Positions 2,493 to 60,805 of a DNA stretch of 64,000 bases are shown in pieces; the first letter of the stretch is position 1, and every line of letters begins with the position of its first letter. The notes under the pieces were generated by a model. That model did no database searches. It saw nothing but the letters and a program-made list of their open reading frames with translations, and was not told where the DNA came from. Location of the stretch: contig JAZSQK010000010.1 of NCBI GenBank assembly GCA_045537915.1, forward strand, positions 5,717-69,716. The letters run 5' to 3'. Source of the stretch: Acutalibacteraceae bacterium. GTDB lineage: Bacteria > Bacillota > Clostridia > Oscillospirales > Acutalibacteraceae. A program made the translations under genes and the position numbers.

Positions 2493-3755
2493 TTAGAAAA
2501 GTATTACAAGGAATTGTGATACAAGAACAACTGCTATCAGGGCTATCGGATAGGTTGCAGCATAAGCAGCGGCAACATCCTCTGTTCCTGCGGTTTTGAT
2601 AAGTGTTCCGAGGGCAGGTGTGCTTGTCATGCCACCGGTAATTGAACCGAGGTTGTTAAGCAGACTGAGCTTAAGCACATATTTTGCAAACAGATATCCG
2701 ATAATCATCGGAACTATAGTCATTACTATTCCGTAGACAAAGTACATCGGGTCAAAGTTTGCTACAAACTCTGCGCCTCCGGGAATTCCTGCACCAACGA
2801 GGAACAGCACAAGTCCTAATTCTCTGAAAAGTTTGAGGGTGCTCTGATTTGGCATAATGCTCACCGAGCCTACACGTCCAAAGTGTCCGAGGATGAGGCT
2901 TACAAGCAGACAGCCGCCCGTTGTGGTCAGCGAGAAACAGGTTCCGCTAAGTCCTTGGTTTGAGAGAGGTATCTTTATCTGACCTACAAATGTTCCAAGC
3001 ACTGCGGCAAGTGAAAAGGCCGCTATGCCCATATGGTCAAGTTCGAAAAGCTTGGCTACTACTTTTGCTTTATCATCTTCCTCCTTGACTACAAGTTTTG
3101 CTCTTTCTTCATCCATATTAGCTTTGCTGAGCTTAGGAATTATCTGAACAAAGAGGACAACTCCTATTACGCCGAAGATATACGCTATACCGTGGCCAAC
3201 CGAAACAAGACCTGTAAACTCCGGGGCAACGGTTGCCTTTGCTGCCGAAAAAGCAGGTGTTGATGTCAGTGAACCTGACAGCAATCCTACTATCATTGCT
3301 ACAAAGCCGTCCTGGCTTTCTATTGTTGCGCCATAGCCAACCAGTTCGCCTGCATAAATACAACCAGCTGCAGAAAGTCCGCCGGCGATAATGATTATAA
3401 GACCAAGCAGCACATAGGACTTAAAGTTCTTTTTGAAATTGCCAAAAAACTTTGGTCCTGCAATATAGCCTACAGAGGTCACAAAAAGCACAAGTCCGAG
3501 GCTTTCGATTATTGAAAGTCCGCCAGAGAAGTCATAGGGTTTTGCAGAGCCGCTAAAAAGAAGCTCTCCTCCATCCCCTATTCCAAAGAAAAGGGCTCCG
3601 AAGACAAGGGCTATTATAAAAACCCCTGCATCTCCAAGAGAAATGCCCTTTATTGTAATTCTTCCAAGGGCGTATCCTACAAAGAGGACCGAGAAAGCCA
3701 CAAATAAAAGGGTTGAAATATTACTTATAGAAATAACACCATTAAAAAGACTCAT
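2493..3755 (-). CDS. AAE-family (AspT/YidE/YbjL/SucE-like) anion transporter, short form; candidate succinate/C4-dicarboxylate exporter
   Basis: 420 aa and highly hydrophobic, with two homologous halves. The N-terminal GRITIKGISLGDAGVFIIALVFG is typical of the Asp-Al_Ex duplication. The central loop is only about 30 charged residues. Last gene of the mdh-fumC-hdr-flx-frd array. Confidence 0.6.
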   Translation of the reverse strand: MSLFNGVISISNISTLLFVAFSVLFVGYALGRITIKGISLGDAGVFIIALVFGALFFGIGDGGELLFSGSAKPYDFSGGLSIIESLGLVLFVTSVGYIAGPKFFGNFKKNFKSYVLLGLIIIIAGGLSAAGCIYAGELVGYGATIESQDGFVAMIVGLLSGSLTSTPAFSAAKATVAPEFTGLVSVGHGIAYIFGVIGVVLFVQIIPKLSKANMDEERAKLVVKEEDDKAKVVAKLFELDHMGIAAFSLAAVLGTFVGQIKIPLSNQGLSGTCFSLTTTGGCLLVSLILGHFGRVGSVSIMPNQSTLKLFRELGLVLFLVGAGIPGGAEFVANFDPMYFVYGIVMTIVPMIIGYLFAKYVLKLSLLNNLGSITGGMTSTPALGTLIKTAGTEDVAAAYAATYPIALIAVVLVSQFLVILF

Positions 3756-3776: not shown

Positions 3777-5375
3777 TTAAACCTTACGGGTATAGTCGGG
3801 AAGCAGCTTGGGCGATACGGTTGCAGTTTCGATTCCTGCAGACTTAATCTGGTTTTCAAACTCTTCAATATGTGAAAGGGTAAGTTTGCCTACCTTTACA
3901 TTTTTAGCCTTGGCAGCCGCATTCATACCTGCGCTTCTGCCGAAAACGATGATATCAAGAAGAGAGTTGCCCATAAGGCGATTTCTTCCGTGAATTCCTC
4001 CTACCGCTTCTCCTGCTACAAACAGATTTTCAACATTTGTAGTCATACAGTCAGAGCCGATATCAAGGCCGCCGTTCTGGTAGTGGAGTGTGGGGTAAAC
4101 AAGAATGGGCTCCTTACGAATGTCGATTCCGTATTTTTCAAACATTCTCCACATTGCAGGAATTCTCTTCATAATGGTTCCCTCTCCGCCGATCTTTTCA
4201 ATCATAGGAGTATCAAGCCATACGCCCTTGCCGTTGCCGGTTTCTACGCCGTTGTTTCTCTCGTTACATTCACGGATAATTGAGGCTGCAGAAACATCTC
4301 TGGTTTCGAGCGGATGCATAAACACCTCGCCCTTTTCATTAACCAGCTTTGCGCCCAGAGAGCGAACCTTCTCGGTAACAAGCGCACCGAAAATCTGCTC
4401 TGGATATGCAACACCTGTAGGATGATACTGCAGAGTTTCGGCATAAAGCAGCTTTGCGCCTACCCTGTAGCCAAGAACAAGGCCGTCAGCCGTTGCGCCG
4501 TAATGGTTAGAAGTCGGGAAGCCCTGATAGTGCATACGTCCTGCGCCGCCCGTTGCAATAATAACCGTTTTAGCTTTTGCAACAAGCAGTTCCTTGGTTT
4601 CCATATTCATAAGCACTGCGCCGGCAGCATTGCCGTTTTCATCCAAGATAAGCTCAACCGCAGCAGTAAAATCAACTACCGGAATATTGCGGTTAAAGAC
4701 CTCATCACGAAGGGTTCTCATTATTTCGGCACCCGAATAGTCCTTTGCGGCGTGCATACGCTTACGGGAGGTTCCTCCGCCGTGGGTTGTAACCATTGTG
4801 CCGTCGGCATCCTTATCGAACTCAACCCCTAAATTGCTTAGCCACTGAATTGCCTCTGGAGCATCGCAAACAAGCTTTGACAAAAGCTCTCTCTTTGCGG
4901 CAAAGTGACCGCCTCCGAAGGCATCTACAAAGTGGATTGCGGGAGAATCATTGGGCTTGTCGGCCGCCTGAATGCCGCCCTCGGCCATCATTGTGTTGGC
5001 ATCGCCTATACGAAGCTTGGTAACGATCATTACGTCTGCTCCGGCTTCGTTTGCCTCAATAGCAGCCGATGCGCCTGCTCCGCCGCCGCCGATTATAAGA
5101 ACATCGGTTTCATAATCGGGCGCCGAAAGGTCAACGCTTTCGGCAGTAATGCGGCTATGCGCCTGAAGAATTTCGGCTAGCTCCTTCGGCACCTTTTCTC
5201 CCTTGTTGGCGCCGATTTTAAGGACATCAAATTCTTCCTTTTTGTAGTCCGGATGGAAAGCCGCAAGAAGATCTTCCTTCTGCTTTGCTGTCATTCGGTC
5301 GGGCTCAAGAGCAATATTTTTTTCTCTTGCCGCTTCAACTGCAGCAATAGATTTCTGAAAATTTTCCGAATACAT
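3777..5375 (-). CDS. Soluble fumarate reductase/succinate dehydrogenase-type flavoprotein (FrdA/TfrA-like)
   Basis: DVLIIGGGGAGASAAIEA dinucleotide fold, LQYHPTG, LVTEKVRSLGA, TLHYQNGGL and LFVAGEAVGGIHGRNRLMGNSLLDIIVFGR match FAD_binding_2/succ_DH_flav_C motifs. About 90 aa of N-terminal extension. Confidence 0.75.
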   Translation of the reverse strand: MYSENFQKSIAAVEAAREKNIALEPDRMTAKQKEDLLAAFHPDYKKEEFDVLKIGANKGEKVPKELAEILQAHSRITAESVDLSAPDYETDVLIIGGGGAGASAAIEANEAGADVMIVTKLRIGDANTMMAEGGIQAADKPNDSPAIHFVDAFGGGHFAAKRELLSKLVCDAPEAIQWLSNLGVEFDKDADGTMVTTHGGGTSRKRMHAAKDYSGAEIMRTLRDEVFNRNIPVVDFTAAVELILDENGNAAGAVLMNMETKELLVAKAKTVIIATGGAGRMHYQGFPTSNHYGATADGLVLGYRVGAKLLYAETLQYHPTGVAYPEQIFGALVTEKVRSLGAKLVNEKGEVFMHPLETRDVSAASIIRECNERNNGVETGNGKGVWLDTPMIEKIGGEGTIMKRIPAMWRMFEKYGIDIRKEPILVYPTLHYQNGGLDIGSDCMTTNVENLFVAGEAVGGIHGRNRLMGNSLLDIIVFGRSAGMNAAAKAKNVKVGKLTLSHIEEFENQIKSAGIETATVSPKLLPDYTRKV

Positions 5376-25549: not shown

Positions 25550-25762
25550 AATTTTCACCTCCGAAAAATGTAGGAAAAGTCTTCTTTTCCAAATAATAAA
25601 ACCTGTCCCCCGAAGACAATAGAGGACAGGCATAAACATCACTTAAAAAGTTTGTTTAGGAACCTCGGTAGGCGTTAAATCCTTATCGCAAATGCGACCT
25701 ACTGTCTTCGGCTATGACATAATAACACACATACTGTGCTTTGTCAACTAATTTTTTCTTGA
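25550..25762 (-). promoter_or_regulatory. Long structured 5' leader upstream of rplJ, in the position of the L10 autoregulatory leader
   Basis: 213 nt non-coding gap with hairpins (for example CCTGTCC...GGACAGG at 25603-25631). Assignment is by position only. Confidence 0.35.
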
Positions 25763-44815: not shown

Positions 44816-44870
44816 ACCTCCCTGCCTTCAATCATATTATTTAGTATACCTTTAAAACGTGGTGATTTCA

Positions 44871-45053
44871 ATGAATAATAACGATTTCTCGAAAATACTA
44901 AACGGCGTTGATCCCGTAAACCTTATGTCCAAGCTAGATGATAAGGACAAAATGCTCTTTGATTCTCTGATGAAGGATAAAGCCGCAAGGGAAAAGTTTC
45001 TCTCCTCCGACGAAGCGCAAAAAATAATCAAAGAAATTCTTGGAGGCCAGTGA
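44871..45053 (+). CDS. Small hypothetical protein (60 aa)
   Basis: ORF only. First of three tightly packed small ORFs. Confidence 0.4.
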   Translation: MNNNDFSKILNGVDPVNLMSKLDDKDKMLFDSLMKDKAAREKFLSSDEAQKIIKEILGGQ

Positions 45054-46656: not shown

Positions 46657-46690
46657 AAAAAGTGTGTGGATTTCTCCACACACTTTTTTA
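46657..46690. terminator. Bidirectional terminator
   Basis: AAAAGTGTGTGGA-TTTC-TCCACACACTTTT. Confidence 0.75.
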
Positions 46691-47149: not shown

Positions 47150-47254
47150 AAGCGCTCCTAATCGTTGTTCACTAAATTTTATTGTATCATAAATTAGTTT
47201 CAATGTAAAGTTTTCATTTTTTGAATATTTTTCACAAAAGTTTTTAACTTTTAC

Positions 47255-47283
47255 TTGACAAATTGTGAATTATGTGGTATATT
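47255..47283 (+). promoter_or_regulatory. Strong sigma-70-type promoter (extended -10)
   Basis: TTGACA-17 nt-(TGg)TATATT. Confidence 0.7.
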
Positions 47284-47289
47284 AAAAAC

Positions 47290-47552
47290 ACAGAAAGAGA
47301 GATGAGTGAAAAAAATCTTAGGAAAGGAAAGGACTGATGCCCAGTGATTTGGGGAATCGAACCGAACTTAAAACTTAGAATCTGAATGAAAGAGGTGAGT
47401 CCAAAGTTCTATTAAGTCCATATTCCAAAAAACAGAATATTTCAAACAGGTGAGTCCAATGAAATAGTACCTTTCTTTTAAAATAGTGAAAGGAACAACG
47501 GTCCAATGTACAAATAAATTTTAACGACTGCGTTTATCGCAGTCGTTTTTTT
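47290..47552 (+). ncRNA. Candidate structured RNA: stand-alone sRNA or cis-acting 5' leader of the DUF2752/TM2 genes. Family not recognised.
   Basis: No credible ORF between the strong promoter and the intrinsic terminator AACGACTGCG-TTTAT-CGCAGTCGTT+TTTTTT (47523-47552). A 12-nt exact repeat AGGTGAGTCCAA occurs at 47393 and 47448, with a third GTCCAATG at 47501. Each copy is followed by a hairpin. Confidence 0.5.
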
Positions 47553-47588
47553 GTTGCAAACAGTCTGTAAATATGCTATTATTCAGAT

Positions 47589-47942
47589 ATGAAAAGAAAG
47601 ATTAGTTATCCTATACCAAAGCTTTGCTTTTTGGCAGCATTTATCGCTTTAGCGATTATTTTTTATTTTAATAATATCCCCTGTATAACCAAGACCGTTA
47701 CGGGCATTGATTGTATCGGTTGCGGTCTTACCCGAGCCTTTATCTCGCTTTTAAAGCTTGATATTGCCGCTGCTTTTTCCTACCACCCTGCCTTCTGGAC
47801 GGTGCCTATCCTTTTCGCCGAGCTTTTCTTTGATATAAGGCTTTTCGGCAAACCAAAGGTTGACCTTGCGCTTTTAGGTGTTTCGGTAGCGGCGCTTATC
47901 ATAACATATATTGTAAGGGTAATCCTTCCTTTAATTTTTTAA
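47589..47942 (+). CDS. DUF2752-family membrane protein
   Basis: The CIGCGLTRAF motif is typical of DUF2752. Several TM helices. Confidence 0.65.
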   Translation: MKRKISYPIPKLCFLAAFIALAIIFYFNNIPCITKTVTGIDCIGCGLTRAFISLLKLDIAAAFSYHPAFWTVPILFAELFFDIRLFGKPKVDLALLGVSVAALIITYIVRVILPLIF

Positions 47943-47961
47943 CTTTTTCGGAGGTTTCTTT

Positions 47962-48396
47962 ATGTATTGCAGAAATTGCGGTAAGCAAATGAATGAAAAT
48001 CAGGCTGTTTGCCTTGGTTGCGGAGTATCTAAAGGGGTCGGCTCTTCCCACTGCGCTAATTGCGGAGCCGAGATAAATCCCGCCGCCGCAATATGCCTTT
48101 CCTGTGGTGTTGCGGTTACAAAATCCGCAGGTAAGGATGCAAAATCCAAAATTATAGCTGCGCTTTTTGGGTTTATTCTGGGTGCATTCGGTGCGCACAA
48201 CTTCTACCTCGGATATACAGGCAAGGCAATCGCACAGCTTGTGCTTACAATTATTGGCTTTTTGACCTATTGCTTTTATATCGGTGTTTTCATTATCCTC
48301 GGGGTTAGCATCTGGACACTTGTCGAATCGGTAATGATACTAACCGGAAAAATAGCAACCGATGCAAACGGCAATCTGCTCAAAAACGATTTTTAA
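47962..48396 (+). CDS. Zinc-ribbon plus TM2-domain membrane protein
   Basis: Double zinc ribbon (CRNCG...CLGCG; CANCG...CLSCG), then the TM2 motif FGFILGAFGAHNFYLGYTGKAIAQL. Confidence 0.75.
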   Translation: MYCRNCGKQMNENQAVCLGCGVSKGVGSSHCANCGAEINPAAAICLSCGVAVTKSAGKDAKSKIIAALFGFILGAFGAHNFYLGYTGKAIAQLVLTIIGFLTYCFYIGVFIILGVSIWTLVESVMILTGKIATDANGNLLKNDF

Positions 48397-48412: not shown

Positions 48413-48446
48413 AACGCCGATAGGAATTCCTATCGGCGTTTTTCTT
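48413..48446. terminator. Bidirectional terminator
   Basis: AACGCCGATAGG-AATT-CCTATCGGCGTT followed by TTTCTTT. Confidence 0.75.
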
Positions 48447-60529: not shown

Positions 60530-60805
60530 ACAAAAAAATAAAATCTTATCCCAGACAATAGGGACAAGATTTGAAAATCCTGCGGTGCCACCCAAATTGA
60601 TGAAAAATCATCCGCTCTGCGCTGTACTATCATACAGCCCCACGATGTAACGGTCGTGCCCCGTCAACTGCTACTCAAACCATCGGTTTTTTCGGTTGCC
60701 CTCATAAGTCCATTCGCCAAAGGTTTCACTGCTGTCATCCCACCGCCGACAGCTCTCTTTGAGTTTCTCGCTTTAGTTACTACTCTCAATCACAGGTTTT
60801 TTCTT
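60530..60805 (-). promoter_or_regulatory. T-box riboswitch leader, Trp-specific (specifier UGG)
   Basis: The minus strand shows AGAGAG in stem I and GCGAAUGGAC with UGG (complement of 60710-60712). The T-box sequence AAUUUGGGUGGCACCGCAG is at 60579-60598. The terminator is AAUCUUGUCCC...GGGAUAAGAUU plus a U-run. Confidence 0.8.

Follow-up and report, generated by a model that had tools for sequence, protein, structure and literature searches.

A stand-alone RNA of Oscillospirales with repeated modules resembling translation-initiation regions

A transcription unit between the LuxS and DAPDH genes

We analyzed a 64,000-nucleotide stretch of DNA (the window) from an Acutalibacteraceae bacterium (contig JAZSQK010000010.1 of assembly GCA_045537915.1), in which an RNA element occupies positions 47255-47552 of the forward strand. 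It lies between the LuxS gene, on the minus strand, and a co-oriented pair of genes for a DUF2752 membrane protein and a TM2 protein, beyond which comes the convergent DAPDH gene. A first-pass annotation, made from the letters alone, had described an unrecognized RNA in which a three-fold repeated module is set between a strong promoter and an intrinsic terminator. The element indeed has its own promoter and terminator, is conserved in relatives and belongs to no Rfam family. The Rfam scan that had been proposed was run with the Rfam 15 covariance models and found no family at threshold in 47255-47552, and none on the element in 20 related loci. The best sub-threshold match, to Hrs12, reached 29.7 bits vs. 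a threshold of 70 and was driven by the terminator.

The sigma-70-type promoter reported earlier is present at 47255..47283 (+ strand) and consists of TTGACA (47255-47260), a 17-nt spacer and the extended -10 sequence TGg-TATATT (47275-47283). With a score of 11/12 plus the TG, it was the top promoter-like site of the 2-kb region in a promoter scan, and the type TTGACA-17-TGTGGTATATT is kept in 15 close relatives, whose promoters we located by anchoring on GGACTGAT. An A/T-tract inverted repeat read from the sequence just 5′ of the -35 (AAAAGTT-TTT-AACTTTT, 47236..47252, + strand) may be an UP element or the operator of a regulator; most close relatives (L043, L103, L161, L172, L162 and others) have the corresponding arrangement, AAAAGTTnnnAACTTTT, ahead of TTGACA, with the spacing AAAAGTT-N3-5-AACTTTT. 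The strong terminator was likewise confirmed at 47523..47552 (+ strand), where AACGACTGCG, a TTTAT loop and CGCAGTCGTT form a 10-bp stem with 6 GC pairs (47523-47547), and the T run is T7 at 47546-47552. It is found at the same place in every relative, with a different sequence each time and the pairing retained. The predicted primary transcript, its start placed from the -10 and its end from the terminator, is ~263 nt long (47290..47552, + strand).

The RNA is transcribed as a unit of its own and is abundant. In the gut metatranscriptome run X9, 54% of its sampled 31-mers were recovered vs. 8% of those from the surrounding 1.7-kb region. The search for a transcript proposed in the first-pass annotation was likewise borne out, with contigs of runs X9 and X17 on 47326-47525 and none on the flanking genes: depth was zero over 47555-47950 (DUF2752/TM2), and zero over LuxS save for a short stretch that also carries unrelated, more divergent contigs. 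A related variant reached a contig depth of 460 in X17. It should be noted that metatranscriptome contigs show presence, not absence, nor the exact ends of transcripts.

The terminator ends, as first described, 37 nt upstream of the DUF2752 ATG (47589), and a cis-regulatory leader for the DUF2752/TM2 genes had been one of three options offered for the element. Some of its features do recall a cis-acting leader or attenuator, be it a riboswitch or a ribosome- or protein-mediated device: a co-oriented gene follows at this distance both in the window and in the related locus L001, a mini-open reading frame (mini-ORF) stops 6 nt ahead of the terminator stem, and, as in leader-peptide attenuators, a short ORF with a strong Shine-Dalgarno (SD) sequence, hairpins and an intrinsic terminator precede a gene. 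However, synteny largely refutes this explanation, which we now consider very improbable. In the closest full-length relatives, L122 and L174, the gene order is LuxS(-), RNA(+), DAPDH(-), i.e. that of the window minus the DUF2752/TM2 pair, and in L155 the RNA runs straight into DAPDH without these genes. Elsewhere, the RNA stands beside convergent or unrelated genes. It is divergent from a DUF1292 gene in L010, L043, L103, L110, L114, L131 and L161, with 6S RNA after that gene where this was checked, and the genes downstream of the RNA in loci of this type are unrelated or convergent (NadE-like, EF-G-like, AsnA-like, a 76-aa ORF). Conversely, the TM2/DUF2752 genes of another lineage (L002-L004) have no such RNA upstream. 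Unlike in an attenuator, neither the downstream gene nor an alternative anti-terminator pairing is conserved, and no read-through was seen in the metatranscriptome contigs, which again show presence, not absence. T-box, preQ1 and other riboswitches were rejected, with no consensus match, no match to a riboswitch family and an element that is not tied to one gene.

The DUF2752 gene also has a promoter-like site of its own outside the RNA, detected in the promoter scan (TTGCAA-17-TGc-TATTAT, with an extended -10; 47554..47582, + strand). Its ATG lies 7 nt past this -10 and has no SD, a layout also seen in L001 (bases 160-207), and the DUF2752 mRNA may be leaderless. Since the strong promoter and the terminator of the RNA are conserved in 15 close relatives while the flanking genes differ, the RNA is a stand-alone gene, independent of its neighbors. 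Of the three options first offered, the leader is thus not supported, while a trans-acting small RNA (sRNA) and a protein sponge are viable.

The DUF2752-TM2/zinc-ribbon pair itself (47589-48396) occurs in the window and L001 and is absent from the LuxS-RNA-DAPDH position of L122 and L174, reflecting either an insertion or a lineage-specific loss. Seven loci, belonging to several subfamilies, contain 6S RNA (Rfam, 49-80 bits) at a distance of 0.5-2.5 kb from the RNA, usually just after the divergent DUF1292 gene (L010 2359-2563, L043 2244-2449, L029 1185-1389, L048 2415-2611, L097 8629-8825, L101 337-542 and L177 466-661); in L043 it is followed by a gene for an AbrB/MazE-fold protein.

A size-variable family built on a repeated module

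The exact 12-mer noted earlier, AGGTGAGTCCAA, occurs at 47393-47404 and 47448-47459, and these are its sole two matches in the window, even with 2 mismatches allowed. Since the expectation for exact matches to a specified 12-mer is ~0.008 in 128 kb, chance does not account for a pair with a spacing of 55 nt. The claim of a three-fold module holds for these two copies, which are canonical, and in part for the third (GTCCAATG, 47501-47508), which is present but belongs to a degenerate module, scoring below 8 bits on a matrix of relatives' modules described below. Module 1 (GAAAGAGGTGAGTCCAAAGTTCTATTAA, 47388..47415, + strand; 37.6 bits on the matrix) is SD-like with AAG at the start-codon position, and shares 28/28 positions with L001, a locus where identity in the DUF2752 protein is only 68%. 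Module 2 (CAAACAGGTGAGTCCAATGAAATAGTAC, 47443..47470, + strand; 25.0 bits) contains the mini-ORF AUG-AAA-UAG (47459-47467) and is kept in L001, L122, L174, L172 and L150. In module 3 (47488..47517, + strand), an SD-like GAAAGGA is followed by GGTCCAATG and the mini-ORF AUG-UAC-AAA-UAA (47506-47517). Both mini-ORFs had been recognized at the outset, and the succession of SD, YCC-R-AUG, 1-3 codons and UAA directly before the terminator is also found in L001, L122, L174, L150, L010, L105 and L162.

We scanned metagenome contigs and species genomes with the two-copy pattern GGTGAGTCCAA-N30-60-GGTGAGTCCAA, which gave raw matches in 93 contigs and 81 genomes. Once coding tandem repeats were removed, ~35 contigs and ~60 genomes had RNA-like loci that are AT-rich, bounded by promoter and terminator, 0.19-1.2 kb in size and provided with 2-7 copies of the motif. 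Matches such as L012, L020, L030, L033, L098 and L113 were rejected as false positives in which the 11-mer falls in unrelated GC-rich coding tandem repeats; these come from marine and sediment samples and encode GEGKCGESK-type Cys/Gly/Glu/Lys repeat proteins. The family resides mainly in Oscillospirales of gut and rumen, with carriers in the Acutalibacteraceae, Oscillospiraceae, Ruminococcaceae and Butyricicoccaceae, many ruminant-gut 'Clostridia' metagenome-assembled genomes (MAGs) and two Clostridiaceae MAGs. It also occurs in Acidaminococcus and Veillonella as well as in a single Coriobacteriaceae MAG of high GC content (L132), in which the motif contrasts with its GC-rich background. Nothing similar to the RNA was found in phage and plasmid collections. 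In Acidaminococcus fermentans (L140, 3523-4218, minus strand), two canonical modules lie in the 3′ untranslated region (3′ UTR) of a gene for a 200-aa secreted (signal-peptide) protein with no convincing Pfam match, and this transcript is among the most represented in several pig and human gut metatranscriptomes (contig depth 860-2750).

Fifteen close relatives share the promoter, a 5′ domain (GGACTGATRCC), the two canonical modules and the terminator, with a degenerate third module in some of them. The RNA is thus a member of an uncurated, size-variable family that lies outside those of Rfam 15. No curated RNA family has this architecture, in which imitations of one very specific ribosome-binding site are repeated, and neither a search by sequence nor one by concept turned up a description in the searchable literature, although absence there is no proof of unpublished status.

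The module matrix was built from 149 unique modules of relatives, anchored on GGTGAGTCC, and yields the consensus GAAAR-N-GGUGAGUCC-AA-W-G-nAC-WR-nU-WA. This ~28-nt motif (in short form GAAAG-N-GGUGAGUCCAA-W-G-NAC..UAA) resembles a translation-initiation region (TIR), with an SD (GGUGA), a 5-nt spacer, a start-codon position and a very short frame. At the start position, 63 modules have AUG, 49 have AAG and 37 have AAA. Of the modules with AUG, 81% reach an in-frame stop within 3 codons, as do 63% of those without, compared to ~35% and 5% in the other two frames; given the phylogenetic relatedness of the modules, these values serve for description only. Mutual information across modules revealed no covarying pair of columns within them. 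The motif therefore behaves as a sequence site rather than as a fold, which would fit a single-stranded recognition site.

The sequence between the modules is, by contrast, conserved at most as structure. The first-pass annotation had placed a stem-loop after each copy, and both inter-module stems are present. Hairpin 1 (ATATTC/GAATAT, 47420-47425/47435-47440, + strand), read from the sequence, is not conserved in relatives, whereas hairpin 2 (CCTTTC/GAAAGG, 47470-47475/47488-47493, + strand) is, like the terminator, conserved as a structure with a differing sequence: its counterparts are CATTCTT/AAGAATG in L001, CATTCT/AGAATG in L174 and CATTATTA/TAATAATG in L172. In L001, which lies upstream of a DUF2752 gene, modules 1 and 2 are kept while the inter-module hairpin and the terminator differ in sequence yet still pair. 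The ~266-nt stretch folds with a minimum free energy of -62.7 kcal/mol (z = -3.4 vs. shuffled sequences). Within the 5′ domain, GGACTGAT (47331..47338, + strand) does not vary within the close subfamily and matches the complement of GUGAGUCC of the modules at 7/8 positions, and RNAalifold pairs it with module 2; because all of these positions are invariant, and hence cannot covary, we treat this pairing as a possibility. A hammerhead-like CUGAUG...GAA in the 5′ part was discarded, its core positions misfitting and cmscan giving no match.

Promoter, short repeats, terminator and gene, in that order, are also the layout of type III toxin-antitoxin loci with ToxI/CptI-like RNA repeats. We give this explanation hardly any credence, and the same goes for a chance repeat. 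The repeats share only a 12-28-nt core (12-16 nt among the copies of the window) and are not tandem identical units, and no ToxN/AbiQ-like gene follows, the downstream genes encoding the 117-aa DUF2752 membrane protein and then TM2. Conservation in ~60 species rules out a chance repeat.

The 5′ reading frame

In this part of the RNA the first-pass annotation has to be revised: it saw no plausible ORF over ~260 nt, and there is a putative small ORF (sORF) of 13 codons plus stop at 47344..47385 (+ strand; GUG-IWGIEPNLKLRI-UGA), with a strong SD, the predicted peptide (M)IWGIEPNLKLRI and homologues in many relatives. Its purine-rich SD region, AGGAAAGGAAAGGA (47320..47333, + strand), corresponds to an AAGGA with an ATG or GTG 8-11 nt further on in at least 30 unique family members. 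The full layout, seen in more than 30 unique loci, is AAGGA, 8-11 nt, an ATG, GTG or TTG start, 10-15 codons and a stop, with 4-9 nt between it and module 1. A small hairpin (CCCA/UGGG, 47340..47353, + strand) has the start codon in its loop, and its 3-4-bp stem undergoes compensatory changes among relatives (CCG/CGG, CCA/UGG, CCCA/UGGG, CCC/GGG).

Homologous peptides are MTWEIEPNLKLRI in L122, MTWEIEPNFRIRI in L174, MKREIEPQVKLKI in L150, MNREIEPNFIGRIK in L155 (GTG start) and MFTETEPNHSAQIFS in L043; more distant ones begin MFTETEPN..., MKTETPPAK, MKDTPPK... and MYCESQF.... Within the clade of the window, L122, L174 and L150, the changes are conservative or synonymous (L/F, K/R, L/I, ACC/ACT, AGA/CGA), while the C-terminal half diverges across the subfamily. 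In long members (0.75-1.2 kb; L144, L082, L134, L054), the same motif as in the modules is the TIR of conserved 9-30-aa sORFs, the peptides with a canonical module as TIR being MGDIIPHHLESFDLIGQSFWKVGSIHSLFH in L144 and MDDSMPQHLNSFGPIGRSFRKKVIVYF in L082.

One could thus view the RNA as a small mRNA, whose product would be the 13-aa peptide (9-30 aa in relatives) and whose modules would be stabilizing or ribosome-retaining elements of the 3′ UTR, in the manner of STAB-SD, the cryIIIA 5′ stabilizer of Bacillus, a one-copy 5′ element whose pairing partner is the extreme 3′ end of 16S rRNA. The conserved sORF with its ATG/GTG/TTG starts, strong SD and fixed distance from stop to module is consistent with this proposal, as are the conservative or synonymous changes between L122, L174 and L150, and in Acidaminococcus the modules come after a highly expressed 200-aa ORF. 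However, some branches have no sORF (L119, L162, L018 and L168 types), the peptide shows no conservation in its C-terminal half when the whole subfamily is compared, and conservation of the sORF falls far short of that of the modules. Moreover, codon 3 is restricted to Thr, Met, Trp or Arg because the stem of the start-codon hairpin imposes it; this variation preserves the hairpin and points to selection at the RNA level rather than on the protein. We therefore judge this small-mRNA interpretation improbable. The first-pass annotation had named a conserved small protein encoded here as the finding that would count against its RNA element; a conserved 10-15-codon sORF does exist in the 5′ part, but it spans just 42 of the ~263 nt and is missing in the branches mentioned.

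The combination of a short conserved frame with a non-coding functional part resembles dual-function sRNAs such as SR1/SR1P, RNAIII/hld and SgrS/SgrT, with the differences that here the sORF has 13 codons and is absent in some branches, and that an array of repeats takes the place of a single pairing region in the non-coding part.

Candidate partners of the modules

The RNA thus comprises a genuine-looking 5′ TIR with a 13-codon sORF, two canonical modules, a degenerate third and an intrinsic terminator. We tentatively favor, at somewhat less than even confidence, the interpretation that it is a stand-alone decoy, whose initiation-region-like modules bind either the 30S subunit or a specific regulator. 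In this scheme, each module would serve as a trans-acting decoy for initiation. Base pairing between its GGUGA(G)UCCAA and the 3′ tail of 16S rRNA (UUGGA-UCACC) would let 30S subunits settle on it; alternatively, the occupant would be a regulator that recognizes this particular TIR. In either case the RNA would titrate its partner, and occupancy by ribosomes would stabilize it, as STAB-SD elements do. Using E. coli rRNA as a proxy, the site with which the extended module 1 paired best was the 16S 3′ end (-19.2 kcal/mol), a duplex in which GGUGA/UCACC and UCCAA/UUGGA flank one bulged G.

The likeness to STAB-SD lies in SD-like sequences (GAAAGG...) that have no real gene behind them and could hold a 30S subunit; the differences are the several copies, the conserved spacer, the presence of some start and stop codons and the location in a 3′ UTR in Acidaminococcus. 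The succession of SD, AUG, 1-3 codons and stop (AUG-AAA-UAG, AUG-UAC-AAA-UAA) also recalls minigenes or start-stop elements, such as the bar minigenes of phage lambda. Unlike in those, over half of the modules of the family have AAG or AAA, and the mini-ORFs are not defining.

Several observations weigh against ribosome capture. With the same rRNA proxy, the 11-mer core pairs no better than shuffled sequences (-14.3 vs. a mean of -13.3 kcal/mol). Capture of ribosomes would by itself account neither for the near-invariance of the spacer GAGUCCAA across phyla nor for the retention of the bulged G, and the SD core GGAGG is not conserved in the modules. The start codon is replaced by AAG or AAA in 58% of modules, and 35/85 loci lack any canonical AUG module; translation of the mini-ORFs can therefore not be the common function, and we rejected it as such for the family. 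In predicted accessibility, the modules do not exceed the average of the RNA. Lastly, the mRNA whose 3′ UTR contains the Acidaminococcus modules is highly expressed, which could mean that they are an mRNA-stabilizing element.

The near-invariant spacer, the non-conserved GGAGG and a core that pairs with rRNA no better than shuffles make a sponge for a specific RNA-binding protein almost as likely, although in absolute terms we would still call it unlikely. The GGUGAGUCCAA sites would then be the operators of a translational regulator, by analogy with CsrB/RsmZ and CsrA. Such a sponge would account for a motif that is near-invariant over at least 11 nt across phyla, including a 'spacer' that a ribosome would not read, for the 2-7 copies per RNA with variable hairpins between them, for the lack of internal covariation, and for the use of the same motif as TIR of conserved sORFs, one site overlapping a real TIR in long members. 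The analogy with CsrB/RsmZ extends to a stand-alone, abundant, terminator-ended RNA of variable length with many short SD-like motifs that also occur at real ribosome-binding sites (RBSs). It breaks down in that GGUGAGUCCAA lies between hairpins without paired columns, whereas GGA sits in hairpin loops in CsrB/RsmZ, and in that this family occurs in Clostridia, Negativicutes and Coriobacteriaceae and has no Rfam match. Against a sponge, no candidate protein is linked to the RNA, the neighboring genes vary, and the range from Firmicutes to Coriobacteriaceae would demand a widely shared protein. In 556 kb of related flanking DNA, no module was found upstream of an ORF of at least 40 aa, which also speaks for the decoy, and no other gene has the motif at its RBS, so that no regulon is visible for the putative regulator.

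The only window sites above 8 bits on the matrix are modules 1 and 2 and one genuine RBS, at 44855-44882, which reads GGTGATTTCAATG (8.5 bits) and precedes a small ORF (ATG 44871, MNNNDFSKILNG...).

The nucleotide-by-nucleotide conservation of the 11-mer is also what base-pairing predicts. The RNA could accordingly be a base-pairing sRNA with the repeated seed GGUGAGUCCAA, directed against UUGGACUCACC target sites and derived from a 3′ UTR in Acidaminococcus. Its Rho-independent terminator and high abundance suit such a role, and repeated seeds are established in Firmicutes sRNAs, e.g. RoxS/RsaE and LhrC. However, the complementary site is absent from the window and from 556 kb of related loci, and no conserved complementary site exists in the neighboring 6S RNA, nor in rRNA beyond the anti-SD tail, which leads us to doubt this explanation even more than that of a small mRNA.

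In the search of E. coli 16S, 23S and 5S rRNA, similarity or complementarity was confined to the anti-SD tail; a 9/11 sense match to 23S rRNA at position 1338 (GGUGAGUCGAC) was judged to be chance. A possible resemblance to RNase P CR-I (GAGGAAAGUCC) was not relied on.

Among known systems, its nearest counterparts in mode of action would be modular decoy or sponge sRNAs and dual-function sRNAs. The RNA does not qualify as a member of an Rfam family, a T-box or other riboswitch, a CsrB-type sponge, a ToxI-type antitoxin or a leader attenuator. Returning to the decoy interpretation in its ribosomal form, one may speculate, with little confidence, that these are cross-phylum 'ribosome-parking' RNAs of gut anaerobes, arrays of non-productive initiation sites that capture 30S or 70S particles, each site combining an extended SD directed at the 16S tail with a non-start or start-stop codon. 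If this were true, the RNA would, in a particular growth state, adjust how many ribosomes are free or keep them protected, under a very strong and possibly regulated promoter.

A number of other features were encountered in the window and related loci. Within the window, the Rfam scan identified a T-box leader (60557-60802, minus strand, 112.5 bits), a ribosomal protein L10 leader (25587-25729, minus strand, 65 bits) and a tRNA with a long variable arm (1868-1951, + strand, 57.8 bits). Between the convergent TM2 and DAPDH genes, a perfect 12-bp palindromic hairpin flanked on each side by a T run (48413-48440) resembles a bidirectional terminator, and a 14-bp terminator-like hairpin (46657-46688) lies between a DUF4358 gene and the end of LuxS. 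In L101, from a ruminant or human gut Clostridia MAG, a ZMP/ZTP riboswitch (3264-3349, 51.8 bits) is found ~1.8 kb downstream of the last module. In L171, a sub-threshold Gut-1 RNA motif (4216-4286, minus strand; 33.8 bits vs. a gathering score of 50, E = 0.003) lies ~800 nt from the family member, on the opposite strand.

For annotation, the consequence of these data is that the DUF2752/TM2 genes are not under the control of this element and that a 13-codon sORF is hidden inside it. The 11-nt core offers a clean mutational handle, and for Acidaminococcus cultured carriers exist. If the family is real and functional, it would be among the more abundant unannotated transcripts of the Oscillospirales, which are dominant in gut and rumen and have been little studied, and its architecture points to a regulator of translation, be it the ribosome itself or an RNA-binding factor.

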